Assembly (NCBI GenBank): GCA_965261255.1
Contig: CBDHCQ010000004.1
Location: forward strand, 3,150,604 to 3,214,603
Reading direction: 5' to 3'
Length of the DNA: 64,000 nucleotides
Origin: Rhodothermales bacterium
GTDB taxonomy: Bacteria > Bacteroidota > Rhodothermia > Rhodothermales > Bin80
Shown here in pieces: positions 2 to 34,703 of the stretch; the stretch's first letter is position 1; every line of letters starts with the position of its first letter. The notes below the pieces were generated by a model that worked only from the letters and a program-made list of their open reading frames with translations, made no database searches and was not told the origin of the DNA. The position numbers and the translations under genes were made by a program.

Positions 2-2887
2 GGGAACCAGCGCCTACAAGTGATCGCACAGATTCTGGATCTCGCCACGGACATGGGGGCGTTGGTGGTGACATCTGCCAGTAATGACAATGCCAATAAC
101 GATGTATTTCTAAAACACCCTGCCGCGTATCATCGCGTGCTTTCGGTGGGTGCAACGGAGCGGGATTCGCGCAGACGGGCGGGGTTGTCGCAGTACGGAA
201 AGACGGTGAACGTCTTTGCTCCCGGCGTTGATATAACTACGACATCACCGGGCAACGAATACAGTTTCTCCGCGACCGGCACTTCCTTTTCGTCGCCGCT
301 GGTAAGTGGTGTGGCAGCATTAATAAAGACCCGGTTTCCCGAGATATCGCCGGATGCGCTCAGGGAGCAGTTGCGGCTTTCAAGCGAGAACATGGATGCA
401 GAGAATCCGGGTTATGCGGGGCGACTTGGCCGTGGGTACGTCAATGCGGAGGCGAGTCTGCAAGCGCCGACGGTTCCTGCTGTACGCGTCAAGCGCTGGT
501 CCTGGAGCGATGCCGATGGCAACGGTCGGATTGATTCTGGAGACCATGTTAAGGTTGACGCTACGGTTGTCAATTACCTGTCGGCAGCCCGGTCACTGAC
601 CGTGGAGCTGGTGCCAGCCGAATCGTACCCCTTCATCACGATGACTGCTGCTGAGTACAATGTAGGTTCTCTAGAGCGTGGCAATTCCAAAGACGTTGAA
701 TTCCAATTCGAGGTTGCTGCGAATGCGCCCCCGAACGTGAGCGTACGGTTCTATGCTCGCATTCGCGACGGCGATTTTACAGACGAGGCGGATGCGTTTT
801 ATTTTGGCATAAACGGGCGGCCTGATTTGGTTCACGCTTCGCTCAGTGCCCTCTACGTTGCCACGCGCGGAGAAAATTGGACCAACAATAACGGCTGGGA
901 TATCACCATGGTACCCACGGAGGAGGAATTGTCGCGCTGGTACGGAGTAAGAACCCTCCTAGGCGGGGTTATTGGGCTTGACTTGTCCGAAAACAACGTG
1001 ACGGGGACGCTGCCTGTTGAGTGGGGTGGTCTCTCGGAGTTGGAATATTTGTGGCTGTGGAGGAATTCGCTGTCGGGATCGATTCCTGTGGAACTGGAAC
1101 AGCTGTCACGGTTGCAAATTCTGAGCCTGAGTAGCAATTTGCTGTCGGGACCGATCCCTGTGGAACTGGGACAACTATCGGAGTTGCGAGAGCTGATCTT
1201 GTGGAATAATTCGCTGTCAGGGTCAATCCCCGCGGAACTGGGACAACTGTCGGTGCTGGAAGTGCTGACCCTGAGTAGCAATTCACTGACGGGGTCGATC
1301 CCTGCGGAATTAGGACAGCTGTCGGGGCTGGAAACCCTAAGTCTGTGGGGCAATTCGCTGTCGAGGTCAATCCCTGCAGAATTGGGACAGCTGTCACAGT
1401 TGCAATCGTTGCGGCTAAGTAGTAATTCACTGACGGGGCGGATCCCTGCGGAATTAGGGCAGCTTTCGGAGTTGCGAGAGCTGTCCTTATGGAACAATTC
1501 GCTGTCAGGGTCGATCCCTGCGGAACTGGGACAACTGTTGCAGCTGGAGGTGTTAAGCCTGAGTAGCAATTCGCTGACGGGGTCAATCCCTGCAGAATTG
1601 GGACAACTGTCGGAGTTGCAAAGCCTGCGCCTGTGGGGCAATTCGCTGACAGGGCTGATCCCTACGGAGTTGGAACAGCTGTCGGAGTTGGAAGTGCTGA
1701 GCCTGAGTAGCAATTCGCTGACGGGGCCGATCCCTGCGGAACTGGGGCAACTGTCACAGTTGCAAGACCTGTTTCTGCATAGGAATTCGCTGACGGGGCC
1801 GATCCCTGCGGAATTGGGACAACTGTCGGAGTTACAAAGCCTGCGTCTGTGGGGCAATTCGTTGTCTGGACCGATCCCTACGGAGTTGGAACAGCTGTCG
1901 AATTTGGAAGTGTTGAGCCTGAGTAGCAATTCGCTGACGGGCCCGATTCCTCCAGAATTAGGACAGCTGTCACAGTTGCAAGACCTGTTTCTGCATAGGA
2001 ATTCGCTGACGGGGCTGATCCCTGCAGAATTGGGGCAGCTATCGGAGTTACGAGAACTGTGGCTGCATAGCAATTCGCTGACAGGGCCGATCCCTGCAGA
2101 ATTGGGGCAGTTGTCGGAATTGCGAGAACTGTGGCTGAACGACAATTCGCTGACCGGGCAGCTACCGCGGAGTTTCATGCAACTGGACAATCTTGAGATT
2201 TTATCCTTTGGCGGTCAGGATCTATGTGCACCCTCGGACGACGAATTTCAGGCATGGCTGCGTAGGATCCCGGACGTATCCGGACCAACTTGTGCGGCTG
2301 TCGCTCCCGTGTCCTTTGCAGATACAATTGCGGATCAATCCTTTCCGCGTGGGCAGACGATTGACCCGTTCATCTTGCCCGAGGCCACAGGAGGCGCGAC
2401 ACCAATCGTCTATGGCCTGACTCCCGCGCTGCCGGCAGGATTGACCTTTGACGCGATTACACGCAAAATAAGCGGAACGCCGACGGTGGTTACGGCTTCC
2501 ACGCCGTATACCTACAAGGCTACCGGCACACACGGGTCTGCCGACAGTCTGGAGTTCAACATTGAGGTATTTGCTCCGACCCATGTAGAGAATGAGTCAC
2601 TGCCGGAGGTCTTTACAATACAGGGTAACTATCCCAATCCGTTTCGGGATGCGACGCGCATAGTGTTGGATCTTCCGTGGCCGACCCGAGTGGCGGTTGA
2701 AGTGATGGATGTGACGGGTAGGCGTGTACTTGCGATGCCAGCGATCGAGTTGTCGGCTGGTTGGGAGCGCAGCTTGGAGGTACGCGGTATGGCCATGTCC
2801 TCAGGACTGTACCTGTACCGCCTGATAGCGACCTCGTCCGAAGGGACAGTTTCAACGCATGTAGGGCATTTCGTACAAATCCGATGA
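2..2887 (+). CDS. Secreted multidomain protein, 5'-truncated by the window edge: C-terminal part of a subtilisin-like S8 peptidase + 17 plant-type leucine-rich repeats + Ig-like domain + T9SS C-terminal sorting domain
   Basis: Frame is open from base 2, with no stop upstream of the track start at 20. Catalytic-Ser motif GTSFSSPLVSG. 24-aa units LxLxxNSL(S/T)GxIPxELGQLSxLxx repeated 17 times. 'YGLTPALPAGLTFDAITRKISGTPT' Ig-like motif. C-terminal 'GNYPNPFRDATRIVLDL...GLYLYRL' Por/T9SS CTD. Confidence 0.85.
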   Translation, partial: GNQRLQVIAQILDLATDMGALVVTSASNDNANNDVFLKHPAAYHRVLSVGATERDSRRRAGLSQYGKTVNVFAPGVDITTTSPGNEYSFSATGTSFSSPLVSGVAALIKTRFPEISPDALREQLRLSSENMDAENPGYAGRLGRGYVNAEASLQAPTVPAVRVKRWSWSDADGNGRIDSGDHVKVDATVVNYLSAARSLTVELVPAESYPFITMTAAEYNVGSLERGNSKDVEFQFEVAANAPPNVSVRFYARIRDGDFTDEADAFYFGINGRPDLVHASLSALYVATRGENWTNNNGWDITMVPTEEELSRWYGVRTLLGGVIGLDLSENNVTGTLPVEWGGLSELEYLWLWRNSLSGSIPVELEQLSRLQILSLSSNLLSGPIPVELGQLSELRELILWNNSLSGSIPAELGQLSVLEVLTLSSNSLTGSIPAELGQLSGLETLSLWGNSLSRSIPAELGQLSQLQSLRLSSNSLTGRIPAELGQLSELRELSLWNNSLSGSIPAELGQLLQLEVLSLSSNSLTGSIPAELGQLSELQSLRLWGNSLTGLIPTELEQLSELEVLSLSSNSLTGPIPAELGQLSQLQDLFLHRNSLTGPIPAELGQLSELQSLRLWGNSLSGPIPTELEQLSNLEVLSLSSNSLTGPIPPELGQLSQLQDLFLHRNSLTGLIPAELGQLSELRELWLHSNSLTGPIPAELGQLSELRELWLNDNSLTGQLPRSFMQLDNLEILSFGGQDLCAPSDDEFQAWLRRIPDVSGPTCAAVAPVSFADTIADQSFPRGQTIDPFILPEATGGATPIVYGLTPALPAGLTFDAITRKISGTPTVVTASTPYTYKATGTHGSADSLEFNIEVFAPTHVENESLPEVFTIQGNYPNPFRDATRIVLDLPWPTRVAVEVMDVTGRRVLAMPAIELSAGWERSLEVRGMAMSSGLYLYRLIATSSEGTVSTHVGHFVQIR
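977..2200 (+). repeat. Coding tandem repeat: 17 x 72 bp (LRR units) with a nested 216-bp (3-unit) super-repeat at 1625-1840 / 1841-2056
   Basis: Direct reading of DNA and protein periodicity. Units 10-12 and 13-15 are nearly identical at the DNA level. Confidence 0.9.
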
Positions 2888-5193: not shown

Positions 5194-5239
5194 GCAGGAT
5201 CCAGTGAAAACGGTTAAGTCGTATTTTCCAGAATACACA

Positions 5240-5262
5240 ATTTAATTCTCGGGCAAACACTA
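5240..5262. repeat. Left copy of a perfect 23-bp direct repeat ATTTAATTCTCGGGCAAACACTA
   Basis: Identical 23-mer recurs at 10787-10809 in the same orientation. The two copies bracket the beta-propeller tandem array. Confidence 0.9.
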
Positions 5263-5613
5263 GATATCAACCTGCCGTAGATCACGGTTCGACCCGTCCA
5301 AATTGGTTTTACCGCAATTCGTGCGGAAGGATTAATTCTGGGCTCCTCAAGTCTTGAAGTGCATACACAGGCTTAACTTGGAAAGGTTGCCCTTAGACTG
5401 TGATCCGACAACAAATATTATACCGAGCAGCGCTACCAGCAGATTGATTTCAAAAAGTGCCACCTGCTTGGGTGTGAATACTCCTATAAATTCTCCACCC
5501 ATCCCTTTTCATGCCTCCGTCGTCTGACGTCTACGAAATCAATACCAGCTCCCCAAATCTACCAGCAGTCCTGGGCCTCAGTAGTTTCTGTGACCCATCT
5601 TCCTGGTGCTACG

Positions 5614-6741
5614 TCAAAAATCGACCGAGTACATCACGACCAGATGCTCACCGGATTCATTGCGCAGGGTACCGTAGGCCAGCGCGTTGGCGGTATCAAT
5701 CACGTACAAAGCTAGGGTTCTTGGAAGCAGAACCTGACCGATCAACCTGCCCTCAGAATCAAGTACTTGCCACCGTGCTTCGCTGGCGGGGGCCTCAACG
5801 TAGTCTTTGATCCAGATGTTATCCTGATCATCAATTACGAAGTACCTGTACGCAGGCTTGAACTCAGGGTACATCTTGCGAGCATCCGCGTCTATCTGCG
5901 CGGGGATATCGTTGCGTGCTAAGGCCACAGGATCGTGGGGCCGCCGAATAGTTCGGACCGTATCACCTGCCAGTGATGTCACTAAGATGTCAATTTCCGC
6001 ATTCAAACCCGAGTAGAAAAGCTGACTGGCACTCAATCCGAACACCGAGTTTGGGGCGAACTTGATTATCTCCACGATTGGACTGCCATCGGGTCCGAGG
6101 CCAACATACAGATCTAAGTTCGGCAGGCGAGCGAGTTCGCGGATACGCTCACCCGCCGAAGACACAAGAACGACGTAACTGTGTCGGGGCTTCTCTCTGT
6201 TGTCGAATATCATCGGCATGTTGTACCGCATGATGAGGCCATTATCGGAAATCCCTACGACTGATGAAGCCGCTCCCCAGTCGTCTTCATAGAGTGGGAA
6301 CTGAATCTGGCGCACATACGTGAAGTCTGTTGGATCGTACACACGCAAGATTCTTTCGCTCGGATCCATAACGTAGACTGAGTCGGATAGGCCCACATCC
6401 ACATCACTCACAGAGACATATTCTCCTGGACCCTCACCCACCCCACCGACAGAACCAAGCCATTCCCCGTCCATCGAGAAAACAGCCACAGAAGGTGGTT
6501 GTCGGTCTGCGATTAGGATTCTATCCACAGAATCCACAGCCAAGCCCGCGATTTCACCGAATAGGAAGGCGTTTTCGTCCGTGTCTTCACCCAGGCGAAG
6601 GATTTCGGTAAATACTATTTCTGCCTCCTCTGCACGGGGCTGCCCGACTAACGTGCTACTGGGCAACACCGTGATGAAGAAAACGGTCAGCGCCACTTGG
6701 ATTATCCGCAGACGCTGACACAAACCCTGACTGGTCGCCAT
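5614..6741 (-). CDS. Secreted beta-propeller-like protein, paralogue A1 (NHL/TolB-like six-bladed propeller family, 'GEGPGEY' motif)
   Basis: Start placed at ATG 6741 (MATSQGLCQRLRIIQVALTVFFITVLPSSTLVG = signal peptide); the track ORF extends 63 codons further upstream only for lack of a stop. Repeated blade pattern hhDxxxRIhhxDxxxxxVxVFxxDGxxLxSxG. Confidence 0.8.
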   Translation of the reverse strand: MATSQGLCQRLRIIQVALTVFFITVLPSSTLVGQPRAEEAEIVFTEILRLGEDTDENAFLFGEIAGLAVDSVDRILIADRQPPSVAVFSMDGEWLGSVGGVGEGPGEYVSVSDVDVGLSDSVYVMDPSERILRVYDPTDFTYVRQIQFPLYEDDWGAASSVVGISDNGLIMRYNMPMIFDNREKPRHSYVVLVSSAGERIRELARLPNLDLYVGLGPDGSPIVEIIKFAPNSVFGLSASQLFYSGLNAEIDILVTSLAGDTVRTIRRPHDPVALARNDIPAQIDADARKMYPEFKPAYRYFVIDDQDNIWIKDYVEAPASEARWQVLDSEGRLIGQVLLPRTLALYVIDTANALAYGTLRNESGEHLVVMYSVDF

Positions 6742-6766
6742 CCTAGGATTTGGAGAGGTATCTATC

Positions 6767-6783
6767 CAAAATGCCACATTTTG
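6767..6783. promoter_or_regulatory. Palindrome CAAAATG-CCA-CATTTTG, 26 nt upstream of the A1 start
   Basis: Perfect 7-bp inverted repeat with a 3-nt spacer. Conserved upstream of A2; the same half-site occurs upstream of B2 and B3. Confidence 0.4.
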
Positions 6784-7442
6784 AGCAGAAATAGTTATCG
6801 AAGTAAAACCAGATCGTACCATCCGGATCCTGTTGAGCATAAATCTAACAATCCCGCTCACCATCATTGGTAACTTAGATTTGGTGAAGACTTTCGCCCG
6901 CTTCGTGCGGGCTGTTCGTCGTGGGGCCAATATAAGGCGATCCCAACTCAGGTCCGATTACGATCCGTGCAATCTGGGGCCCAAGGTGAATCGGATTGAT
7001 CCGATGCAGTGGAACCGGCTGGGCGTGGATAAAATCGGTCAACCAAGCAAGCTCTGCCGCGCTTTCACAATAAGCCCTTGACATTGTAGTGCTTGCCGGT
7101 CAGACTACCGGCTATGGTCCACAACAACCCATATTGGCAACGCTCCGATCATCGGTGTCCGACTTTTCCGCACTGCGTGACGAGCATCGCGACAAAGGCC
7201 ACAACGTGACCAGTCGCGCGGTGTGCGATCTGTCGTTGTAGGAATCGTGAACAGCTTCTGTGTAGGGGGCTGGGGAAACCGGGATCCCTGCCGCGAGATC
7301 AGACTGTTACGGACGAAACTCCGTGGCTATAGCCTACATGCCACCTCGCCACTCGATATCAACAAAATCAATGCCAGCTACCCAAATCCACCCGTGGCCC
7401 TAGGCCTTAGAAGTTTCTGTGACCCATCTTCCAGGTGCTACG

Positions 7443-8573
7443 TCAAAAATCGACCGAGTACACCACGACCAGATGCTCATCGGATTCATTACGCAGTCTA
7501 CCGTAAGCCAGTGCATTGGCGGTATCAATCACGTACAGTGTTAAGGTTCTTGGAAGCAAGACCTGACCGAGCAACCTGCCTTCAGAATCAAGCACTTGCC
7601 ACCGCGCTTCGCTGGCGGGGGCCTCAACGTAGTCTTTGATCCAGATATTATCCTGATCATCAATTACGAAGGTCCTATACGCAGGCTTGAACTCTGGGTA
7701 CATCTCGCGAGCTTCCCTGTCTAACCACGCGGGGAAATCACGTTTCAAGGGTACACGATCGTGGGGCCGCCGGATAGTGCGGACTGTATCACCGGCCAGT
7801 GATGTCACCAAGATGTCAATTTCCGTATTCAAACCCGAATAGAAAAGCTGACTGGTACTCAATCTGAACACCGAGTTAGGGGCAAACTCGATTTCCTCCA
7901 CGGTTGGACCGCCATCAGGTCCGAGACCAACATACAGACCTAAGTTCGGATGGCGAGCGAGTTCACGGATACGCGTACCCGCCCAAGACGTGAGAACGGC
8001 GTAACTGTGTCGGGGCTTCCCTACGTTATCGGGCAGTATCATCGTGTTGTACCGCATGATGGGGCCATGATCGGACACCCCTACAGCTGATGAGACGCTT
8101 CCCCAGTCTTCGTCGTACGGAAATCGAATCTGGCGCACATATGTTAAGTCTGTTGGGTCGTACACATGCATGCGGGGTTCGCGCCCACTCCTGCCTTCCA
8201 TAACATAGACTGTGTCGAATGGGCTCACATACACGCCACGCACTTCCTCATATTCTCCTGGACCCTCACCCTTCTCACCGACCGAACCGAGCCATTCTCC
8301 GTCCATTGAGAAAACAGCTACCGAAGGTGGTCGTCGGTCTGCAACTAGGATCCTATCCTTAGAATCCACAGTCAAGCCCACGATTTGACCGAACAGGTAG
8401 GCGTTTTCGTCCGTTTCCTCACCCACGCGAAGTATTTCGGTGAATGTTATTTCTGCCTCCTCTGCGCGAGGCTGCCCGACTAGAGTGCTACTGGGCAACA
8501 CCGTGATGAAGAAAACGGTCAGCGCCACTTGGATTATCCGCAGACGCTGGCACAAACCCTGACAGGTCGCCAT
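7443..8573 (-). CDS. Secreted beta-propeller-like protein, paralogue A2
   Basis: Same layout as A1. ATG 8573 gives MATCQGLCQRLRIIQVALTVFFITVLP... High identity to A1 and A3 over the full length. Confidence 0.8.
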   Translation of the reverse strand: MATCQGLCQRLRIIQVALTVFFITVLPSSTLVGQPRAEEAEITFTEILRVGEETDENAYLFGQIVGLTVDSKDRILVADRRPPSVAVFSMDGEWLGSVGEKGEGPGEYEEVRGVYVSPFDTVYVMEGRSGREPRMHVYDPTDLTYVRQIRFPYDEDWGSVSSAVGVSDHGPIMRYNTMILPDNVGKPRHSYAVLTSWAGTRIRELARHPNLGLYVGLGPDGGPTVEEIEFAPNSVFRLSTSQLFYSGLNTEIDILVTSLAGDTVRTIRRPHDRVPLKRDFPAWLDREAREMYPEFKPAYRTFVIDDQDNIWIKDYVEAPASEARWQVLDSEGRLLGQVLLPRTLTLYVIDTANALAYGRLRNESDEHLVVVYSVDF

Positions 8574-8598
8574 CCTAGCATTTGGAGAGGTGTCTATC

Positions 8599-8615
8599 CA
8601 AAATGCCACATTTTG
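8599..8615. promoter_or_regulatory. Palindrome CAAAATG-CCA-CATTTTG, 26 nt upstream of the A2 start
   Basis: Identical to the A1 site. Confidence 0.4.
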
Positions 8616-9273
8616 AGCAGGAATAGTTAACGCAGTAAAACCGGATCGTACCATCTGGGTCCTGTTGAGCATAAATCTCACAATCCCGTTCACCGTCATT
8701 GGTAACTTAGATTTAGTTACAACTTTCGTCCGCTCCGTGCGGGTTATTCGTCGTGTGGCCAATATAAGGCAATCCCAACTCAGGTCCGATTACGATTCAT
8801 GTAGACTGGGGCCCAGGGTGAATCGGATTGATCCGATGCAGTGGAACCGGTTGGGCGTGGATAAAATCGGTCAACCAAGCAAGCTCTGCCGTGCTACTAC
8901 AATCAGCCCTTAGCATTGTAATTCTTGCAGGTTAGTCTACGGGCTATGGAATCACAACAATCCATACTAGCAGCGCTCCGATCATCAATGTCTGCGCTGT
9001 CTGCACTGCTTGACGGGTATCGCGACAAAGGCTGCCACGCGACCGGTCGCGCGGTGTGCGATCTGTCGTTGTTGGAATCGTGAACAGCTTATGTGCGGGG
9101 GCCGGGAAACCCGGGTCCCTATCGCAATATCAGGCTGTCACGGACGAAACATCGTGGCTATAGCCCACAAGCCGCTTCGTCACTCGACATCTACGAAATC
9201 AAAGCCAGCTACCCAAATCCACCAGTGGTGCCGGGCCTTAGTAGTTTCTGTGGCCCATCTTCCTGGTGCTACG

Positions 9274-10539
9274 TCAAAAATCAACCGAGTACACCACGAC
9301 CATATACTCACCGGATTCACTACGCAGGGTACCGTAAGCGCGTGCGTTGGCGGTATCAATCACGTACAATCTCAGGGTTCTTGGAAGCAGAACCTGACCG
9401 ATCATCCTGCCTTCAGAATCAAGCACTTGCCACCGTGCTTCGCTGGCAGGGGCCTCAACGTAGTCTTTGATCCAGATATTATCCTGATCATCAATTACGA
9501 AATACCTATACGCAGGCTTGAACTCTGGGTACATCTCGCGAGCTTCTTTTTCTAACCACGCGGGGAAATTGCGTTTCAAGGGTACACGATCGTGGGGCCG
9601 CCGGATAGTGCGGACTGTATCACCTGCCAGTGATGTCACCAAGATGTCAATTTCCGTATTCCACCCCGAGTAGAGAAGCTGACTAGCACTCAATCCGAAC
9701 ATCGAGTTAGGGGCATACTCGGCTTCCCGCACGAATGGGCCACGATCAGGGTCGAAACCAACATAAACGTCTAAGTTCGGTAGGCGAGCGAGTTCGCGGA
9801 TACGCTCTCCCGCCCAAGACGTAAGAACGACGTAACTGTGCCGGGGCTCCCCTACGTTGTCGGATAGTACCATCGTACTGTACTGCATGATGGGGCCATG
9901 ATCGGAAACGCCTACGGCTGATATGGCGGCTCCCCAGTCGTCTTCGTTGTGTGGGAATCGAATCTGGCGCACAGGCGTGAAGTCTGTCGGGTCGTACACA
10001 TGTAAGATATTTTCCCTCCAATCCATAACGTAGACTGAGTCGGATGGGCCCACATCCACATCATTCACAGAGACATATTCTCCCGGACCCTCACCCACGC
10101 CACCGACAGAACCGAGCCATTCTCCGTCCAACGAGAAAACAGCAACCGAAGGTGGTCGGTGGTCTGCAATTAGGATTCTATCCTTAGAATCCACGGCCAA
10201 GTCCCCAATTTGACCGAATAGGTAGGAATTTTCGTCCGTGTCCTCACCCAGGCGAAGTATCTCGGTGAATGCTATTTCAGCCTCCACTGCACGAGGCTGC
10301 CCGACTAAAGTGCTACTGGGCAGTACCGTGATGAAGAAGACGATCAGCGCTACTTTGATTATCCGCAGACTGCTGGCACAAAAAAATACTAGTCGCCATT
10401 CTGGGAGTCGGGGAGCTTTTTCTGCACAATAGCACAGATTGAGCAGAAAACGAAAACGTGCATCGCTCTCCTCTGCACGAAACGATGTCGGGAGCGGACC
10501 AACCAGATTTCCTAACCTAAGCATTGAGTTCCATTGCAT
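9274..10539 (-). CDS. Beta-propeller-like paralogue A3; the canonical signal-peptide start is out of frame (possible pseudogene, or uses an upstream ATG)
   Basis: The family ATG (10397-10399) is +1 relative to the long ORF. There are 31 nt versus 30 nt between the ATG and CTGCGGATAATC, with a T7 run (A7 on plus, 10380-10386). The ORF stays open only via a non-homologous 47-codon extension. Confidence 0.55.
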   Translation of the reverse strand: MQWNSMLRLGNLVGPLPTSFRAEESDARFRFLLNLCYCAEKAPRLPEWRLVFFCASSLRIIKVALIVFFITVLPSSTLVGQPRAVEAEIAFTEILRLGEDTDENSYLFGQIGDLAVDSKDRILIADHRPPSVAVFSLDGEWLGSVGGVGEGPGEYVSVNDVDVGPSDSVYVMDWRENILHVYDPTDFTPVRQIRFPHNEDDWGAAISAVGVSDHGPIMQYSTMVLSDNVGEPRHSYVVLTSWAGERIRELARLPNLDVYVGFDPDRGPFVREAEYAPNSMFGLSASQLLYSGWNTEIDILVTSLAGDTVRTIRRPHDRVPLKRNFPAWLEKEAREMYPEFKPAYRYFVIDDQDNIWIKDYVEAPASEARWQVLDSEGRMIGQVLLPRTLRLYVIDTANARAYGTLRSESGEYMVVVYSVDF

Positions 10540-10786
10540 CTAAACATGAAAATTACGCCTAATCGACCCGATACGCCCCAAAATTCGCTGAAACAAGCCC
10601 CGAGTCTAAAAGGGTTAAGAGGGTCCCCAGGACATCGAAAACTGGCCGAGCAACCCAAGGTACAGCTGAAATCCTGCTGAAACTTGACCTACCTACACGC
10701 AACAGGCCAGATGTATGCAACGAACAACCCAGAGTACGGCTGAACTCCTACTCAAACCCCTCCTGAAACACATTGAACTGACCTAT

Positions 10787-10809
10787 ATTTAATTCTCGGG
10801 CAAACACTA
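10787..10809. repeat. Right copy of a perfect 23-bp direct repeat ATTTAATTCTCGGGCAAACACTA
   Basis: Identical to 5240-5262. Lies 21 nt upstream of the amidohydrolase ATG at 10830. Confidence 0.9.
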
Positions 10810-10829
10810 TACAATAACGGTAGTCAGCA

Positions 10830-12167
10830 ATGCATTATCCCCTCAGAAACATGAAAACGCAAATAGGCTTATTGATTGTTGCCGCCGGGTTGTTTACCTG
10901 CGGCTTAGTAAACGCACAGGAAATCACCGCATTTACTAATGTGACGGTGCTTCCTATGGACAGCGACCGGGTGCTGGACGCACATACAGTCCTTGTTGAG
11001 GGCGATCGCATATTGTCTGTTGGATCAGATGTTGAGGTGCCTCTCGGGGCACAGATGATTGATGGTACAGGCAAGTTTCTATTGCCGGGCCTTGCAGAAA
11101 TGCACGGTCATATACCACGACCAGATCAGCCTGAACAGTACACCGAAGATGTGCTTTTTCTGTATGTGGCCAACGGAATTACGACCGTCCGGGGAATGCT
11201 TGGTGCCCCTGGACAGCTGGAACTTAAGCAGCGTGCAAACAATAGCGAACTTATCGCACCTACACTCTATTTAGCCGGCCCCAGTTTTAACGGAAGTTCT
11301 GTGAACTCACCGGAGCAGGCCGTCGCAATGGTGCACGAACAGGTGAAAGAAGGCTGGGATCTGCTGAAAGTGCTTACTGGCATGTCGAAGGCCGAATTTG
11401 ATGCCATGGCACGTACAGCGGCCGAAGAAGGGATTCGTTTTGGCGGCCATGTGCCTGCAGATGTGGGATTGATGCACGCACTGAATATGGGACAGGAGAC
11501 CTTTGATCATGTGGACGGCTATGTGGAATACATCCGCGCACAGGACCTCCCAGAGACCGAGGCACTGCAAGAGGCTATTGCACTCACTAAAGAGAAGGGT
11601 GGCTGGATTGTGCCGACCATGGCATTCTGGGAAGTCCTGTTTGGTGTCATTGATCTGGAAGACCTGCGGGCGTACGACGAATTGAAGTATATGCCGCCAG
11701 CGATTGTGGAAAGGTGGTTTCGAATAATTGAGGGACGACAGAATCACCCCCAATATGACAGGGCCGCGGCTTTGGATTTAATCCATACCCGTATGCGTGT
11801 GTTGCGCGCACTGCACGAGGCGGATGTTCGTATCCTTATGGGCACTGATTCCCCGCAATTCTTCAGTGTACCCGGATTCTCTTTGCATCGCGAACTTGAA
11901 CGAATGGTGGATGCGGGAATGTCCAACTATGCGATCCTTCATACAGGTACACGGGCTGTAGGTGAATATTTTGCAAACGAAGACACATTTGGAACGATCA
12001 GCGAGGGCGCACGGGCGGACCTGTTGCTGGTGGATGGCAATCCCCTTGAGGACCTCTTGCACCTGCAGGAGCTGTCCGGGGTTATGGTGCGTGGCAATTG
12101 GTACACCCGTACATTGCTGGACGAACACCTGGAAAGCATTGCAGAAGCCCATCGTAACTCTAACTGA
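10830..12167 (+). CDS. Secreted amidohydrolase-family metallohydrolase
   Basis: N-terminal signal peptide. 'LLPGLAEMHGHIP' HxH metal motif. C-terminal 'GARADLLLVDGNPLEDL' typical of amidohydrolase_1/3. Confidence 0.85.
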   Translation: MHYPLRNMKTQIGLLIVAAGLFTCGLVNAQEITAFTNVTVLPMDSDRVLDAHTVLVEGDRILSVGSDVEVPLGAQMIDGTGKFLLPGLAEMHGHIPRPDQPEQYTEDVLFLYVANGITTVRGMLGAPGQLELKQRANNSELIAPTLYLAGPSFNGSSVNSPEQAVAMVHEQVKEGWDLLKVLTGMSKAEFDAMARTAAEEGIRFGGHVPADVGLMHALNMGQETFDHVDGYVEYIRAQDLPETEALQEAIALTKEKGGWIVPTMAFWEVLFGVIDLEDLRAYDELKYMPPAIVERWFRIIEGRQNHPQYDRAAALDLIHTRMRVLRALHEADVRILMGTDSPQFFSVPGFSLHRELERMVDAGMSNYAILHTGTRAVGEYFANEDTFGTISEGARADLLLVDGNPLEDLLHLQELSGVMVRGNWYTRTLLDEHLESIAEAHRNSN

Positions 12168-27400: not shown

Positions 27401-28594
27401 ATGGCCACACCCAATCAGGATCAAGGAAGCCTTGTGGTCGCGCTTGTCTTGCTCCTTAGGGCCTGCTCCCAGCAAGCACCATCCGAAACCGGGACCGTCG
27501 ACAACTCCAACGTGGAGACCGTAACCAGCATCCCCGCGAATTCGAAGGCGACTTGCACACTCAGTGAAGAACCCGTCTTGGTCATCGGCGATGACGAGAA
27601 AGATGACAGCCAATGGTTCTCTTGGATCCGAGGGATGGGACGTCTGTCAGATGGATCCGTCGCGGTGGTTGATCGCACGTCGGCTGAAGTTCGCATTTTC
27701 GACGCGTCGGGGCGTCACCTACGATCAATGGGCCAGCGCGGCGAAGGCCCCGGTGAGTTCACCGACCCCTTTAAACTATGGATCACGGCAGGCGACACGC
27801 TTTGGGTGGGAAACACCGGGGCTTGGAGCTACACTGTATTCACGGCCCGGGGCCAATTCGTCCGGAGGATCGTGCTCGATCCGGTGTATTCGAACACGTC
27901 AAGTGCTGGAGGCGTGCTCGAAAACGGGTACACTGTGAACGCCAGACAGGTAGGAACGCGCACCCCGGACTTTGACGTTCCAGACACGATGATAGTAGAG
28001 ATCCACGATTCCGATGGGAAGTTTATCGGCAACATCGCCCGGATTCCCCACTTAACCTATGGACACGTCAATGAAGCCCCCGGGGTCGGGTTCTACCCGC
28101 TCTTTGAAGCAAGCGCCGAAGTTGACGCGCTGGGGTCAACCATTGTGCTGGCACACGGTAGCAAACCTGAGGTACAGGTTCTGGACGATGAATCCAACTT
28201 ACAAATGATCGTCCGCTGGTCAGATCCAAACCGCGAGGTTACGCGTGCCGACATGCGCGCCTGGCGCGAGGATTACCGAGAGCGCCATAGTTCTTCTGAC
28301 TGGGATCAGTATGATGACGCCGTAATTAGCCCAGAGCGTCCAGTGGCCGACGTTTTCCCAGCTATGTCTAGTGTCAAGGTTGGTCGTGACGGCCGCATCT
28401 GGGTCCGCCAATACGACCGGCCCCGGGAAGATCGTGGATGGCTCGCCTTCGGAACTGACGGCAAATTCTTTTGTCACATGGCCCAGCCCCCCGGCGATGT
28501 TTGGGAATTCGGAGCCGACTACATGCTCCTGCTTCACGAGTCCGAACTTGGGGTTGAAACCGTTAGGATGCATCGCCTCACGTCACCTTCTTAG
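27401..28594 (+). CDS. Lipoprotein, beta-propeller-like family, paralogue B1 ('GEGPGEF' subfamily)
   Basis: Lipobox LLLRAC. 'VLVIGDDEKDDSQWF...DRTSAEVRIFDASGRHLRSMGQRGEGPGEF'. Alignable with A1-A3 along its length. Confidence 0.85.
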   Translation: MATPNQDQGSLVVALVLLLRACSQQAPSETGTVDNSNVETVTSIPANSKATCTLSEEPVLVIGDDEKDDSQWFSWIRGMGRLSDGSVAVVDRTSAEVRIFDASGRHLRSMGQRGEGPGEFTDPFKLWITAGDTLWVGNTGAWSYTVFTARGQFVRRIVLDPVYSNTSSAGGVLENGYTVNARQVGTRTPDFDVPDTMIVEIHDSDGKFIGNIARIPHLTYGHVNEAPGVGFYPLFEASAEVDALGSTIVLAHGSKPEVQVLDDESNLQMIVRWSDPNREVTRADMRAWREDYRERHSSSDWDQYDDAVISPERPVADVFPAMSSVKVGRDGRIWVRQYDRPREDRGWLAFGTDGKFFCHMAQPPGDVWEFGADYMLLLHESELGVETVRMHRLTSPS

Positions 28595-29232: not shown

Positions 29233-30177
29233 TCAGCGCTCCAGGCGCCGGGCGGAAATGAACGGCGTCAATTCACCTGCCCCGGGGAAACCGCGATCAG
29301 CAGGGGAAGGAGCTTCCCAGTCAGCCTGGCTAGCCTCTATTTCCATGAGTCCATCGGAACGGAATGTGATAAACGTATACAGCGCATGCGTGTATGGTGC
29401 CATGCTCCCGTATTCTGCCCCAACCCAATAGTATGAAGCACTGTTTATCCACAGATATTGGATGCCATTCTTGCGCGTGTACCGATCAATATGGTGATGA
29501 CCGCAAAAGCAGGCCACTACCTTACTATCGGCCCCGCTACTGTTGTGCTCTTCCAGTACGGCTTCAATGGCGCTGCTAGCCTCAGGCATGGAGGTTGGAA
29601 GACCGAGGCCTTGGTGTGCAAAAACCACTACCGGAAGAGATGATTTGGCGAGGTCATCACGGAGCCAAGCAAGCTGAGCGTCATCGGCGTAGCCACGCAG
29701 AGAGGCATCCACATAGAAATTAGCTTCATTGTAGGGCGTATAACCTTCATCCGCCTTTAGATTGTTTCGGTCAAGAACTACCACATGGTAGGGACCGAAA
29801 TCAAAGGAGTAGTAGCGACCTGGCATGCCCCACTTTCTAACAATAGCATCCTTGGACACAAAGTCCATGTCATGGTTACCGAGTACATGATACCCCGGGC
29901 CTACAAACGAATTCCAGAGGTCTAGGCATTCCTCACTCTCTTTGGTGCCATAATTGAAATCCCCCAACTGGAGAATGGCATCAGGTTTGCGCTCGGCGAC
30001 GGCTCGCATGAACGTTTCCAGTCGCTCCATCGCCCGTGGTGCTAATCCATGATGCAGGTCTGCTATTACACCAAGACAAACGGATTCGGTCTGGGCTGCA
30101 CTACGACCCGGACGAAGAAGAAGGCACGCTGTACCAATCTTCAGCAGCTCCCGACGTGATATCTGTAGTGGTACCAT
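29233..30177 (-). CDS. Tat-exported calcineurin-like metallophosphoesterase
   Basis: Twin-arginine signal 'ISRRELLKIG'. 'IADLHHG', 'LGDFNYG', 'LGNHD', 'CGHHH' phosphoesterase motifs. Confidence 0.85.
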   Translation of the reverse strand: MVPLQISRRELLKIGTACLLLRPGRSAAQTESVCLGVIADLHHGLAPRAMERLETFMRAVAERKPDAILQLGDFNYGTKESEECLDLWNSFVGPGYHVLGNHDMDFVSKDAIVRKWGMPGRYYSFDFGPYHVVVLDRNNLKADEGYTPYNEANFYVDASLRGYADDAQLAWLRDDLAKSSLPVVVFAHQGLGLPTSMPEASSAIEAVLEEHNSSGADSKVVACFCGHHHIDRYTRKNGIQYLWINSASYYWVGAEYGSMAPYTHALYTFITFRSDGLMEIEASQADWEAPSPADRGFPGAGELTPFISARRLER

Positions 30178-31043: not shown

Positions 31044-32285
31044 ATGATCTCACCCAATCAGTATCTAGGAGGCCTCATGGTCGCTCTTGCCTTGCTCCTC
31101 GGTGCCTGCTCCCAGCAAGCACCATCCGAACCCGGAACCGTTGACAGCTTCCAGCAAGCACCATCCGAAACCGTGACCATTGACAGTTCCAACGCGCAGA
31201 TCGTAACCAGCACCCCCGCAAGTTCGGAGGCGACATGCACATTCAGTGAGGAACCCGTCTTAATCATAGGCGATAACGAGGAAGATGACAACCAATGGTT
31301 CTCCGTGATCCGGGGAATGGGGCGTCTGTCAGATGGATCCATCGCGGTGCTTGATTACGAGTTTACCGAAGTTCGCATTTTTGACGCGTCGGGGCGCCAC
31401 CTACGGTCGATGGGCCAGCGCGGAGAAGGCCCCGGTGAGTTCACCGATCCGTTTATCCTGTGGGTCACGGCAGGCGACACGCTTTGGGTGGGAAACGCCC
31501 GGCCTTGGAGCTATAATGTTTTCACGTCCCAAGGACAATTCGTGCGAAGGGTCAGGCTCGAGCCGGTATATCCGAACCCGTCAAGGGCTGGGGGCGTGCT
31601 CCAAAACGGGTACTCTGTGAACTCCAAAGTGGGAGGGACAGGAATGCCCACCCCGGACTTTGACGTTCCAGACACGATGATAGTGGAGATCCACGATCCC
31701 GAAGGGAAGTTTGTCGGTAACCTCGCCCGAATTCCCCACATAACCTATGGCCAGGTCAGTGAAAGCCCCGAGAATTCCTATTTGTACCCGCTCTTCGAAG
31801 CCGGCGCCGAAGTTGACGCGCTGGGGTCAACCATCGTACTGGCACACGGGAGCAAACCCGAGGTACAGGTTCTGGACGATGAATTCAACTTACGGATGAC
31901 CATCCGCTGGTCAGAACCGAACCGTGAGGTTACGCGTGCGGACATACGTGCTTGGCGCGAGGATTGGCGGGAGAGCCGTAGTCCTTCGGTCTGGAGTCAG
32001 AGTGATGATGCCAGGATTAGCCGGGAACGTCCGGCGGCTGACGTTTTCCCAGCTATGTCCAGTGTCAGGATCGGTAGTGACGGCCGCATCTGGGTCCGCC
32101 AATACGACCGGCCTCGGGAAGATCGTGGATGGCTCGCCTTCGGTGCTGACGGCAAATTCTTTTGTCACATGGCCCAGCTCCCCAGCGATGTTTGGGAATT
32201 CGGAGCCGACTATGTGCTCTTGCTTCACCGGTCCGAACTTGGGGCCTATACCGTTCAGATGCATCGCCTCACGTTACCTTCGTAG
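31044..32285 (+). CDS. Lipoprotein, beta-propeller-like family, paralogue B2
   Basis: Lipobox LLLGAC. High identity to B1 and B3. Short internal duplication (QQAPSEPGTVDSFQQAPSETVTIDS) after the lipobox. Confidence 0.85.
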   Translation: MISPNQYLGGLMVALALLLGACSQQAPSEPGTVDSFQQAPSETVTIDSSNAQIVTSTPASSEATCTFSEEPVLIIGDNEEDDNQWFSVIRGMGRLSDGSIAVLDYEFTEVRIFDASGRHLRSMGQRGEGPGEFTDPFILWVTAGDTLWVGNARPWSYNVFTSQGQFVRRVRLEPVYPNPSRAGGVLQNGYSVNSKVGGTGMPTPDFDVPDTMIVEIHDPEGKFVGNLARIPHITYGQVSESPENSYLYPLFEAGAEVDALGSTIVLAHGSKPEVQVLDDEFNLRMTIRWSEPNREVTRADIRAWREDWRESRSPSVWSQSDDARISRERPAADVFPAMSSVRIGSDGRIWVRQYDRPREDRGWLAFGADGKFFCHMAQLPSDVWEFGADYVLLLHRSELGAYTVQMHRLTLPS

Positions 32286-33037: not shown

Positions 33038-34261
33038 ATGATTACGCTTAATCAGTGTCTACATAGCCTTGTGGTCGCGCTTGCCTTGTTCCTTGGTGCC
33101 TGCTCCCGGCAAGTACCGTCCGAAACCTGGAATATTAACAGCTCCCGGCAAGCACTATCTGAACCCCTGACCATTGACAGCTCCAACGCGCAGATCGTAA
33201 CTAGCACCCCGGCAAGTTCGGAGGCGACATGCACATTCAGTGAAGAACCCGTCTTGGTCATCGGAGATGACGAGGAAGACGACAACCAATGGTTCTCTTA
33301 TATCTGGGGGACGGGACGTCTGTCAGATGGATCCATAGCGGTGGTTGATAACGACCTTTATGAAGTTCGTGTTTTCGACGCGTCGGGGCGTCACCTGCGA
33401 TCAATGGGCCAACGCGGCGAAGGCCCCGGTGAGTTCACCAATCCCACTTCCCTGTGGATCACGGCAGGTGACACGCTTTGGGTGGGCAACTACCGGCCTT
33501 GGAGCTACACTGTATTCACGGCCCAAGGCCAATTCGTGCGGAGGATCCTGCTTGATCCGGTGTTCCAAAACCGGTCAGAAGCTGGGGGCGTACTCGAAAA
33601 CGGGTACACCGTGAACGCCAAAGAGGTAAGGATAGGAATGCGCACCCCGGACTTTGGCGTTCCAGACACGATGATAGTGGAGATCCACGATCCCGACGGG
33701 AAACTTGTCGGCCACCTCGCCCGGATTCCCCACATAACCTATGGCACAGTACGTGAGGCCCCCGAGAACCTCTATTTGTTCCCGCTCTTTGAGGCAAACG
33801 CCGAAGTTGACGCGCTGGGATCAACCATCGTGCTGGCACACGGGAGCAAACCCGAGATACAGGTTCTGGACGATGAATTCAACTTACGGATGACCATCCG
33901 CTGGCCAGAACCGAACCGTGAGGTTACGCGCGCAGACATACGTGCTTGGCGCGAGGATTACCGAAAGCTCCGTAGCCCTGCTCGATACATGCTTAGCCGA
34001 GAACGTCCGGTTGCTGACGTTTTCCCGGTTATGTCCAGTGTCAAGATCGGTCGTGACGGCCGCATCTGGGTCCGCCAATACGACCGGCCCCGGGAAGACC
34101 GTGGGTGGCTTGCCTTTGGTGCTGACGGCAAATTCTTTTGTCACATGGCCCAGACCCCCGGCAGTGTTCGGGAATTCGGAGCCGACTATTTGCTCCTGCG
34201 TCACGAGCCCGAACTTGGGGTCCATACCGTACGGATGCATCGCCTCACGTCACCTTCTTAG
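33038..34261 (+). CDS. Lipoprotein, beta-propeller-like family, paralogue B3
   Basis: Lipobox LFLGAC. High identity to B1 and B2. Confidence 0.85.
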   Translation: MITLNQCLHSLVVALALFLGACSRQVPSETWNINSSRQALSEPLTIDSSNAQIVTSTPASSEATCTFSEEPVLVIGDDEEDDNQWFSYIWGTGRLSDGSIAVVDNDLYEVRVFDASGRHLRSMGQRGEGPGEFTNPTSLWITAGDTLWVGNYRPWSYTVFTAQGQFVRRILLDPVFQNRSEAGGVLENGYTVNAKEVRIGMRTPDFGVPDTMIVEIHDPDGKLVGHLARIPHITYGTVREAPENLYLFPLFEANAEVDALGSTIVLAHGSKPEIQVLDDEFNLRMTIRWPEPNREVTRADIRAWREDYRKLRSPARYMLSRERPVADVFPVMSSVKIGRDGRIWVRQYDRPREDRGWLAFGADGKFFCHMAQTPGSVREFGADYLLLRHEPELGVHTVRMHRLTSPS

Positions 34262-34703
34262 CTTGCGTATGAAATACAGACGACGCAGACCCGGCCTTGT
34301 GGAAGGCATTCTTCATGGCGGCAGCCTACGTGGGTCAGCCCGGCATCCTTCCATTCGACAGAACCGAGAAGGTGTGTGTGAAACTTTGTTTATCAAACGA
34401 GAATTCGGACGAGTGAACCACAGAAGCCGTGGAATGGGTGCGTGAAATCTGCGCGGATCGTGGACAAAATTCACTAATCGGAGATCTCACTCGAGACAAA
34501 GCATCTGTCGACACAAAAAACGGCGAACCCATGCCGATGAGTCGCGTAACCCGACTATATTTAACCAGGTTAAGCCGGAAATTGGCGGGTCAACAGATAA
34601 GAATGAATAATTTTGCAACAGGCTTCTACAATTCTGACCGGTTCCGGTGGCCATGCGATGCCTGCAGGACGCCCCGCCCGTACTGCAGGGGAAGGAAGGG
34701 AGA

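Follow-up and report, generated by a model that had tools for sequence, protein, structure and literature searches.

A three-copy tandem array of DUF5128 beta-propeller genes belongs to an old, copy-number-variable and recombining Rhodothermales gene family

Three tandem genes for beta-propeller proteins, alike in some segments and different in others, raise the question of when they were duplicated, how their similarity became patchy and whether selection has driven them apart. They were analysed within a 64,000-nt stretch of a Rhodothermales contig (hereafter the window), in which they lie on the minus strand with an amidohydrolase gene on one side and NAD synthase on the other. The initial annotation had read them as a recent amplification followed by recombination between copies and by diversification of a surface- or ligand-facing family. 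Its ORF stops at 5614, 7443 and 9274, and with them the 1829- and 1831-bp periods, were reproduced from the ORFs, and the peptides that it quoted from the three proteins were found exactly.

Anatomy of the array

The three genes, two complete spacers, two repeat edges and a recurrent palindrome are as follows.
5614..6741, minus strand: A1, 375 aa, a six-bladed beta-propeller of DUF5128/NHL-like type that starts with a signal or anchor helix; ORF with ATG at 6741, adjoining NAD synthase
7443..8573, minus strand: A2, a 376-aa paralogue and the middle copy; ORF
9274..10524, minus strand: A3, the paralogue adjoining the amidohydrolase gene; exact match to P0008
6742..7442, minus strand: spacer between A2 and A1, 701 nt of conserved non-coding DNA, 86% identical to the other spacer
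8574..9273, minus strand: spacer between A3 and A2, 700 nt (700–703), conserved non-coding DNA on the same evidence
5526..5613, minus strand: stub of 84–88 nt, a partial third copy of the spacer start, which is the A1 3′ flank and the repeat end; 84.5–87.5% identical to spacer positions 1–88
10369..10460, minus strand: upstream repeat edge, ~90 nt directly preceding the A3 body and homologous to the spacer 3′ end (repeat family D5, 72% identical)
6990..7005, minus strand: perfect palindrome ATCGGATCAATCCGAT, ~250 nt upstream of the A1 start, invariant in the spacers
8822..8837, minus strand: the same palindrome ATCGGATCAATCCGAT upstream of A2, invariant in the spacers

Repeat families spaced 1823–1834 nt span both genes and spacers, and homologous DNA extends from ~5530 to ~10460, about 2.7 units, with 80–86% DNA identity among the copies. 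The genes and the ~0.7-kb spacers thus align as had been claimed, but complete spacers number only two and the third is the stub; the same 70–170 nt recur after the stop codon at every related locus, single-copy loci included. At the other edge, identity to the spacers climbs from ~40% to 60–88% inward from ~10460, so that only ~90 nt upstream of A3 are homologous.

The two spacers are 80–90% identical to five spacers of three related genomes (L016, L017 and L018), and the one at 6742..7442 presumably holds the A2 3′ flank and the A1 promoter and 5′ region. Within them no 3-nt periodicity of substitutions and no coding signal were found, nor any RNA-structure signal (RNAalifold covariation term −0.55), and Rfam gave no credible match; two sub-threshold mir-103 matches sit inside the A1 and A3 genes. 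In the window the palindrome is confined to the two spacers, with 0.04 occurrences expected by chance, and it is unchanged in all seven long spacers compared (alignment columns 440–455), which makes it a candidate protein-binding site.

The start of A3 is uncertain. Its conserved body begins at ~10368, and the start codons of its relatives are missing: a 1-nt indel puts the ATG common to A1 and A2 out of frame, and the ATG of the orthologues (MVCAS...) is TTT. In-frame ATGs occur only upstream, at 10524 and 10539, and the public entry P0008 takes the first of these for a 416-aa protein; clear codon periodicity was not found in this upstream extension (36/26/37). One copy of the array may therefore be poorly expressed.

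That the array is an artefact of a collapsed or expanded repeat has next to no probability. Repeats of this kind do trouble assemblers, as seen in a related MAG whose array is split over two contig ends (L003 and L010). Nevertheless, metagenome scaffold L001, which has an ENA record of its own but may derive from the same source, matches the whole array with 100% identity over 5.7 kb. L017 and L018, from two other samples, also have three copies at the 1.83-kb period, and copies only 80–86% identical are too diverged for collapse or mis-joining.

Fold, family and predicted location

PF17170 (DUF5128) matched all three copies above its gathering cutoff (22.9 bits), with 55.7 bits for A1 and 34.8 bits for A2, the match being limited to profile positions 40–172 of 321. 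Searched against the PDB, a profile of the family matched NHL domains (E 2.5e-24). The AF2 model of A1 (pLDDT 77) has a helix at residues 7–24 followed by 26 strands, and its top Foldseek matches were NHL domains, with probability 1.0 to the Thin, TRIM2 and Brat propellers and to the bacterial exported protein 4raa. Together with an N-terminal hydrophobic signal, these results bear out the reading as beta-propellers with an export signal.

Full-length relatives number in the hundreds (353 clusters at E<1e-30), among which the A1–A3 clade forms one 50%-identity cluster, so far only from Rhodothermales MAGs. PF17170 proteins of Bacteroidota, including Bacteroides fragilis BF0058 (PDB 4raa; Foldseek E 1.9e-7 and TM 0.48–0.51 against the A1 model, sequence E 8e-6), resemble A1–A3 in length (~370 aa), export signal and fold, and neither has a function assigned by experiment or annotation; no papers on DUF5128 were found in the literature, and the clusters of the family give no source names. 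In sequence (E 1e-22 to 1e-24) as in structure, A1–A3 matched best to the eukaryotic NHL domains of TRIM2/3/71, Brat, Thin and Mei-P26, with which they share the six-bladed propeller and the G-x-G-x-G-(E/Q)-F ... V-A-D motif. Identity to these is however only 11–16% (TM 0.46–0.50), the motif is recognisable in one or two blades, single-repeat Pfam scores fall below cutoff, and A1–A3 have an extra insertion at residues 269–297 and extra terminal strands. Moreover, A1–A3 are exported bacterial proteins, whereas eukaryotic NHL domains are cytoplasmic RNA- or protein-binding parts of TRIM proteins.

Neither a lipobox Cys nor a T9SS C-terminal domain was found in A1–A3, although distant relatives, including a second three-copy cluster of the same superfamily in the window, do have the lipoprotein Cys. 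In diderm bacteria, an exported protein with neither feature is by default periplasmic or membrane-anchored, and this is probably where A1–A3 reside. The surface location proposed initially was thus not demonstrated, and a host-facing role is less likely if, as may be the case, the proteins stop short of the cell surface.

Residues invariant across relatives of 23% identity are Gly, Pro, Trp and Phe, with one Asp and one Glu of the NHL motif, and no His or Cys constellation or metal-ligand set was conserved across distant relatives. This composition suggests a binder rather than an enzyme. Periplasmic propeller enzymes of lyase, lactonase or PAL type, with paralogues differing in substrate specificity, are an unlikely alternative: Foldseek did match virginiamycin B lyase, peptidyl-hydroxyglycine lyase, gluconolactonase and CylK at E ~1e-7, and Pfam gave a weak hint to glutaminyl cyclase, but these matches are weaker than those to non-catalytic NHL domains, a catalytic residue set of the kind just mentioned is missing, and the flanking genes are housekeeping genes rather than parts of a pathway.

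Orphan immunity genes also form tandem, copy-number-variable arrays that are exchanged between strains. A1–A3 resemble such islands in their predicted periplasmic location, tandem paralogy, copy-number variation and strain exchange, and might by this analogy act as decoys or in immunity, their variability serving to neutralise toxins or to block phage or bacteriocin uptake. We regard this as very improbable, since no toxin, T6SS, Rhs or mobile-element genes adjoin the array at related loci, except for a transposase and an LRR-protease insertion beyond NAD synthase in some genomes, and the literature searched describes no such propeller family as immunity proteins.

Age, copy number and recombination

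Copy number was compared at the same locus, between the amidohydrolase gene and NAD synthase, in 13 related MAGs. The syntenic site holds one copy in five genomes (L005, L006, L008, L011 and L013), two in four (L002, L009, L016 and L019) and three in the window and its match L001, in L017 and in L018; in L003 and L010 contig ends interrupt the array. Arrays of two or three copies are present across lineages whose flanking amidohydrolase is only 91–96% identical in protein sequence.

The copies of the window are old by their own divergence (dS 0.27–0.31), and in the tree they do not group together: A1 falls with L003 and copy 3 of L017, A2 with copy 1 of L016, and A3 with L011 and copy 1 of L018. 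In nearly every 30-codon window the best match is in another genome, at 0–5% divergence compared with 10–28% to the in-genome paralogues. The closest relatives of A1 are P0001/L003 (95% aa) and copy 3 of L017 (0% divergence over codons 121–285); A2 is closest to copy 1 of L016 (0–2% nt divergence over codons 136–270), with codons 76–135 nearest to copy 2 of L018. In-genome paralogues match best in a few windows only (A1/A2 codons 1–30 and A2/A3 codons 241–315, 3–4% divergence).

Similarity among the copies is indeed mosaic, as first noted. Across 270 variable sites of A1–A3 the two-against-one patterns are nearly equal in number (98/85/79) and are clustered far beyond chance, with 146 runs where permutations gave 174.9 ± 7.6 (runs test, p=1e-4). 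Among 25 family members, site incompatibility grows with distance and PHI is 0.256 against 0.297 ± 0.005, a value reached in none of 2000 permutations. The variable and two-allele segments, and the conserved end of the gene, are given here with A1 coordinates.
6337..6444, minus strand: variable segment 1 (residues 100–135, end of blade 1 into blade 2); A1 equals A3 and A2 differs, with a 3-aa indel
6040..6249, minus strand: variable segments 2–3 (residues 165–234, blades 3–4), of highest column entropy
5860..5934, minus strand: two-allele segment (residues 270–294, an insertion with short helices); A2 and A3 have RVPLKR.FPAWL where A1 has PVALARNDIPAQI
5617..5886, minus strand: conserved C-terminal 90 codons, the last blades; 77 of 90 residues invariant

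In segment 1 (6440–6321), the pattern uniting A1 and A3 accounts for 20 of 29 two-state informative sites (20 of 32 variable sites), and dS is 0.12–0.15 between these two against 0.30–0.34 for pairs containing A2. In the two-allele segment (5960–5841), the pattern uniting A2 and A3 accounts for 18 of 25 such sites (18 of 26 variable sites), their dS being 0.11–0.13, and the same two alleles segregate among copies of other genomes. A tract of ~450 nt is 100% identical between A1 and copy 3 of L017, though the flanking genes are 91–97% identical and the whole array is just 67–90% identical between positional homologues. Recombination is thus detectable, as had been proposed between copies, but exchange between strains also enters, and with ~13 genomes gene conversion inside this array is not separable from it.

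A recent local amplification, with conversion within the array and diversifying selection on a surface ligand-binding face producing the mosaic, accordingly has little chance of being right and is largely refuted already by the tree, the window best matches and dS. The mosaic itself, the few windows of close in-genome similarity and sliding-window pN/pS values of up to 1.2–1.4 speak for it. Against it stand the dS of ~0.3, orthologues at 0–5% divergence elsewhere, a tree that does not sort by genome, arrays of the same 1.83-kb period in other lineages, a tree-based omega of at most 1 and the lack of a surface-targeting signal in the proteins. Rather, the dS values, the closer counterparts in other genomes and the one to three copies per locus indicate an old birth-and-death family of Rhodothermales, variable in copy number, with recombination among paralogues and strains.

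We consider it fairly probable that the locus as a whole is an old three-member array of intact, Sec-exported DUF5128 propeller genes, kept at a fixed Rhodothermales site by birth and death plus recombination. Gene copies arose by duplication before the split of the sampled lineages, and loss or gain has left genomes with one to three. Segments of 100–500 bp have been shuffled by homologous recombination or gene conversion, both between paralogues and across strains, into the observed mosaic.

Selective constraint and possible roles

Variability is concentrated at residues 100–135, 150–190 and 205–235 (omega ~0.75–1.0), with conservation in blade 1 and the C-terminal third, which bears out the claim that divergence is concentrated in particular blades. 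Family pN/pS is 0.8–1.0 in segment 1 and 1.0–1.4 in segments 2–3 (15-codon windows). Tree-based omega is 0.74–0.99 in the variable windows, with P(omega>1) of 0.6–0.9, and 0.26–0.34 in the conserved parts. Since the former values are not significantly above 1, adaptive diversification was not demonstrated. Entropy is 0.61 in strand and 0.72 in non-strand positions (p=0.07); variability is thus regional rather than confined to loops, and singles out no binding face.

The C-terminal ~90 residues had been called almost invariant; they are conserved, yet pairwise aa identity is 89–91%, with nucleotide identity of 91% and differences mainly at third codon positions. A dN of 0.01–0.08 with dS of 0.18–0.50, and family pN/pS down to 0.09–0.3, indicate purifying selection. 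Homogenisation was considered as another source of this conservation and rejected, dS being normal and dN low.

Equivalent duplicates whose variable blades are under relaxed constraint, with the mosaic as a by-product of recombination and no adaptive repertoire, are possible though doubtful. An omega of ~0.75–1.0 in the variable windows agrees with such redundancy, as do the many genomes in which a single copy suffices and the loss of the usual start codon in A3. However, none of the 25 family copies has a stop codon, ~365 codons being intact in all of them (overall omega 0.49), and alternative alleles at residues 270–294 and 100–135 persist across lineages without decay. The second three-copy cluster has likewise been retained in the window. 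Between genomes the array is more diverged than its flanks and still includes imported tracts of 100% identity, a combination that drift explains less well than maintained polymorphism.

Sponge symbionts are represented in the clade by at least one member, the relative L005, which is bin80 of the sponge Aplysina aerophoba. Repeat proteins of eukaryotic type (ankyrin, LRR, TPR, NHL and Fn3) are reported to be enriched in sponge symbionts, NHL repeats (PF01436) being among the domains listed. The locus resembles these systems in that an LRR/S8-protease gene adjoins the array and the family is expanded, with six members in the window; for A1–A3 a secretion route to the host is not evident, and a role in host association would be tentative.

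Helicobacter hop/OMP and Neisseria opa are birth-and-death and gene-conversion families of proven surface proteins with phase-variation switches. The array is like them in its full-length paralogues, mosaic segments, strain exchange and variable regions beside conserved ones. In contrast to them, no repeat tracts, invertible promoters or silent cassettes were found at the array, and A1–A3 are probably periplasmic or membrane-anchored.

In the old birth-and-death array, blade 1 and the last third are held by strong purifying selection, and blades 2–4 and the one inserted loop evolve almost neutrally with discrete alternative alleles. The conserved part might serve a common role, for example folding or partner binding, and the variable part might set ligand specificity. 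If the propeller is a binding module, the array could, we tentatively suggest, provide the cell with a few different binding specificities.

Organisation of the tandem array

Three copies of a ~1.83-kb unit, as described in the initial annotation, were confirmed on the minus strand, where the stop positions of the ORFs (5614, 7443 and 9274) are 1829 and 1831 bp apart, and where repeat families spaced 1823–1834 nt apart cover both the genes and the intervening sequence. The peptides quoted from the three propeller genes were likewise found exactly as given. The genes, running from the NAD synthase side (A1) to the amidohydrolase side (A3), are as follows:

A1: 5614-6741, minus strand; 375 aa, ATG at 6741; most plausible gene
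A2: 7443-8573, minus strand; 376 aa; most plausible gene
A3: conserved body from ~10368 down to 9274, minus strand

The three proteins share 79–80% identity and their DNA differs by 14–20%, with DNA homology spanning from ~5530 to ~10460, that is ~2.7 units. Two spacers are complete (701 and 700–703 nt, 86% identity), and the repeat edges are marked by a spacer stub of 84–88 nt after A1 and by ~90 nt of homology before A3. An assembly error as the source of the array is excluded, because the ENA metagenome scaffold L001, a separate record whose source may be the same, matches the array over 5.7 kb at 100% identity, and because copies this divergent would in any case be told apart. A3 is identical to the database protein P0008, its public gene call, likewise encoded on a contig of 3.6 Mb, and an exact-sequence look-up of A1 found no record.

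Copy number, age and recombination

The locus between the amidohydrolase gene and NAD synthase was retrieved from 13 related Rhodothermales MAGs, and a metagenome scan contributed just four loci. Copy-number comparison across the related MAGs found one, two or three copies at this one locus.

Copy number at the locus (L numbers denote related loci or scaffolds from Rhodothermales MAGs and metagenomes)
One copy: L005, L006, L008, L011, L013
Two copies: L002 (period 1556), L009 (period 1599), L016 (period 1826), L019 (insertion)
Three copies: this genome, L017, L018 (periods 1822-1831)
Array divided over contig ends in one MAG: L003 and L010

Single-copy L005 resembles L002 copy 1 and single-copy L013 resembles L002 copy 2; single-copy genomes thus kept different paralogue lineages, which indicates differential loss.

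The initial annotation had taken the amplification to be recent. Whole-gene comparisons among A1–A3, however, gave a dS of 0.27–0.31 (omega 0.38–0.44), and the three genes do not cluster together in a neighbour-joining tree, in which A1 is placed with L003 and L017 copy 3, A2 with L016 copy 1, and A3 with L011 and L018 copy 1. Taken 30 codons at a time, the genes nearly always have their best match in another genome, at 0–5% divergence as compared with 10–28% for the in-genome paralogues, and the identity of that match changes along each gene. Recent amplification is largely refuted by these three lines of evidence, and a recently amplified or concertedly evolving array was rejected, since the copies within the genome are not mutually closest and their dS is not low.

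The mosaic similarity first noticed by eye was borne out statistically. The three-way alignment has 270 variable sites, at which A1=A2 was found 98 times, A1=A3 79 times and A2=A3 85 times, and these site patterns are strongly clustered (146 runs versus 174.9 ± 7.6 when permuted, p=1e-4), with the following blocks:

6800-6680: A1=A2, 5′ end
6440-6320: A1=A3
6140-6020: A1=A2
5960-5840: A2=A3

Within the blocks, dS of the matching pair falls to 0.11–0.15 versus ~0.3 elsewhere. Over the 25 family members of the sampled loci, PHI was significant (0/2000 permutations) and site incompatibility grows with distance. A1 and L017 copy 3 share a ~450-nt tract at 100% identity, and, between genomes, the flanking genes are 91–99% identical but the array only 67–90%. 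Mutual best matches within the genome occur in a few windows (codons 1–30 for A1/A2 and codons 241–315 for A2/A3), which allows some local conversion. The proposed recombination between copies therefore stands as recombination, on PHI and the runs, with in-array and between-strain shares that are inseparable at this sampling. Together, the dS values, the tree that does not follow genomes, the best matches in other genomes, PHI and the contrast between array and flanks identify an old, polymorphic, recombining multigene site, and its description as an old, copy-number-variable, recombining array is well supported.

Known routes to programmed variation were also considered. Antigenic- or phase-variation cassettes of the pilE/pilS or vlsE kind were rejected, because every copy is full length and the upstream regions of A1 and A2 are homologous. 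Tandem short repeats were absent from 5200–10900, and an invertible promoter was rejected, as only weak, non-conserved inverted repeats were seen. Regarding a diversity-generating retroelement, variable segments occur in the 64-kb window only within the paralogues and no RT gene is listed for the related loci, the window's own ORFs being scanned in part.

Spacers, translation starts and genomic surroundings

The seven long spacers, drawn from four genomes, share 80–90% identity. A gene within them was rejected, because substitutions across the seven aligned spacers lack a 3-nt periodicity and the ORFs are unconserved between copies; a tblastx search of the window with the spacers gave no match outside the array. 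A structured RNA was rejected as well, with chance mir-103 matches within genes as the only Rfam result and an RNAalifold covariation term of −0.55 kcal/mol. Scanning the spacers for sigma-70 sites, with a tool that does not cover Bacteroidota-type promoters, yielded fewer sites than in shuffles, and terminator-like sites were at background level. At all loci, the first 70–170 nt past the stop codon are conserved.

In L004 (OZ219799.1, 47853–68980; a 2.84-Mb genome), a family copy lies at 10001–11128, outside the syntenic locus. This dispersed copy has spacer positions 294–574 upstream, which suggests an origin from an internal array copy and fits that stretch as the 5′ regulatory region of the gene. 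A perfect 16-nt palindrome is present ~250 nt upstream of two genes:

6990-7005: palindrome ATCGGATCAATCCGAT, upstream of A1
8822-8837: palindrome ATCGGATCAATCCGAT, upstream of A2

It is invariant in 7/7 long spacers and found nowhere else in the window, and is a candidate regulator-binding site.

In A3, a 1-nt indel puts the ATG shared with A1 and A2 out of frame, and the ATG used by several orthologues reads TTT. A3 would have to be translated from 10524 or 10539, with an extension of 52–57 aa. This upstream frame (10369–10539, minus strand) is open in 12 of the 13 first-position copies, with two in-frame indels (9 and 51 nt); its substitutions by codon position (36/26/37) give no clear coding signature, and L011 has in-frame stops in it.

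Beyond NAD synthase lies a leucine-rich-repeat (LRR) gene:

20-2887, plus strand: LRR ORF with ~15 tandem 72-nt (24-aa) leucine-rich-repeat units, tandem repeat at 1064-2159

Its full version in L001 encodes a 1278-aa S8 peptidase/LRR/He_PIG protein. No genome other than this one, L001 and L018 has the gene at this position, and L002, L016 and L017 lack it there, which gives it the appearance of an inserted gene for a eukaryote-like protein. On its far side in L018, two small ORFs separate it from a DDE transposase. In L019 (5273–8003), a distance of 3.9 kb separates the two copies, small ORFs have been inserted, among them a DNA-methylase fragment, and Por_Secre_tail proteins are found downstream in place of NAD synthase. 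The insertions and this replacement mark the locus as a site of rearrangement also. One relative, L005, is the Rhodothermaceae MAG bin80, which comes from the sponge Aplysina aerophoba, and NHL repeats are among the eukaryote-like domains reported in the literature as enriched in sponge symbionts.

A second propeller cluster of the same superfamily has three copies in the window:

27401-28594, plus strand: copy 1
31044-32285, plus strand: copy 2
33038-34261, plus strand: copy 3

Its proteins are 73–77% identical to each other (DNA 82–89%; spacings 3.69 and 1.99 kb) and ~23% identical to A1–A3, and their lipobox (LLGAC/LLRAC) identifies them as lipoproteins. A metallophosphoesterase gene (29233–30177, minus strand) is located between copies 1 and 2, and a GIY-YIG/DUF4357 protein gene (34647–35564, plus strand) directly follows the cluster.

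Fold, location and selection of the propeller proteins

In whole-protein HMM searches against PF17170 (DUF5128, '6-bladed beta-propeller'), A1, A2 and A3 scored 55.7, 34.8 and 49.9 bits, respectively, all above the 22.9-bit gathering cutoff, and the same family is precomputed for 46/46 close homologues. The alignment covers only profile positions 39–172 of 321, and the C-terminal two thirds of A1–A3 appear too diverged for the Pfam model. A single NHL repeat (PF01436) reached 16.3 bits in A2 and 16.9 bits in A3, below the 20-bit cutoff, with no match in A1. A profile of 44 family members matched solved NHL domains (Thin, TRIM2, TRIM3 and TRIM71) at E 2.5e-24, in 3–4 stretches that all fall onto one query segment (residues 96–177), and the exported B. 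fragilis protein 4raa at E 8e-6. The AF2 model (pLDDT 77, pTM 0.77) has 26 strands, an N-terminal helix at residues 7–24 and a disordered linker, and Foldseek matched it with probability 1.0 to six-bladed NHL propellers and 4raa, ranking the NHL propellers top, followed by other six-bladed propellers including 4raa and several enzymes. The predicted fold is a six-bladed beta-propeller, with the blade count taken from these Foldseek matches. Identity with ScyF (NCBIfam NF035926, a scytonemin PEP-CTERM NHL protein) was rejected at 28–30 bits versus the 350-bit equivalog cutoff, and also because the C-terminus, ...VVYSVDF, lacks a PEP-CTERM tail.

The wider family contains 353 50%-identity clusters at E<1e-30, with many full-length proteins of ~370–400 aa, and the A1–A3 clade is one single such cluster; A1–A3 are a lineage-specific subfamily of a known, uncharacterised propeller family. 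Literature searches found no paper that mentions DUF5128 and, for tandem six-bladed propellers in Bacteroidetes, no useful report.

The N-terminus, MATSQGLCQRLR-IIQVALTVFFITVL-PSSTLVG/QP, resembles a Sec signal or a signal anchor. No lipobox Cys follows the h-region of A1–A3 (...VLPSSTLVGQPR), unlike in the second cluster and the database proteins P0047 and P0049, which carry L-x-x-C, and a Por_Secre_tail (T9SS) domain search of A1–A3 gave no match. A Bacteroidota surface lipoprotein or T9SS cargo was rejected on these grounds, and the surface location suggested initially was not upheld. In a diderm, the default for a protein with neither feature is periplasmic or inner-membrane-anchored, which is thus the default location of A1–A3. 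The positions that stay unchanged across the 23%-identical relatives hold structural residues (Gly, Pro, Trp and Phe) together with NHL-motif Asp and Glu, which weakly favours a binding scaffold over an enzyme.

The near-invariance of the C-terminal ~90 residues noted initially corresponds to 77/90 invariant positions, with dN of 0.01–0.08 and a normal dS of 0.18–0.50, indicating purifying selection, not homogenisation. Family-wide pN/pS is lowest (0.09–0.3) at residues 295–330 and 33–62 and reaches 1.0–1.4 at residues 126–135, 165–189 and 210–234, and tree-based omega is 0.74–0.99 in variable windows and 0.26–0.34 in conserved parts. The variable regions are blades 2–4 and the insertion 269–297. 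Diversification is therefore concentrated in particular blades, as had been claimed, but the diversifying selection claimed with it was not demonstrated, as tree-based counts gave no omega above 1. Restriction of the variability to loops was rejected (loop versus strand difference non-significant, p=0.07).

Tentatively, A1–A3 may function as exported binding modules with a conserved and a variable half. We regard it as unlikely that the locus would be a maintained, recombination-shuffled repertoire of recognition modules, in which variable blades are exchanged on a scaffold formed by a conserved half-propeller and alleles are kept polymorphic across Rhodothermales symbiont lineages through host-, phage- or competitor-driven balancing selection. 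If such a repertoire exists, copy number and allele combination would tune the bindable partner molecules, and this would be a bacterial variable-receptor locus without a dedicated diversification enzyme. If the variable blades set ligand specificity, the locus would offer a compact, tractable case of a symbiont population's reshuffled repertoire of exported binders, helped by its fixed chromosomal site, 1–3 copies and discrete alleles common to several lineages, and would also be a useful marker of strain-level recombination in sponge-associated Rhodothermales. For the present, the main lesson is that an old polymorphic multigene locus can pass for a recent tandem amplification, and this one adds its own subfamily to the DUF5128 propellers.
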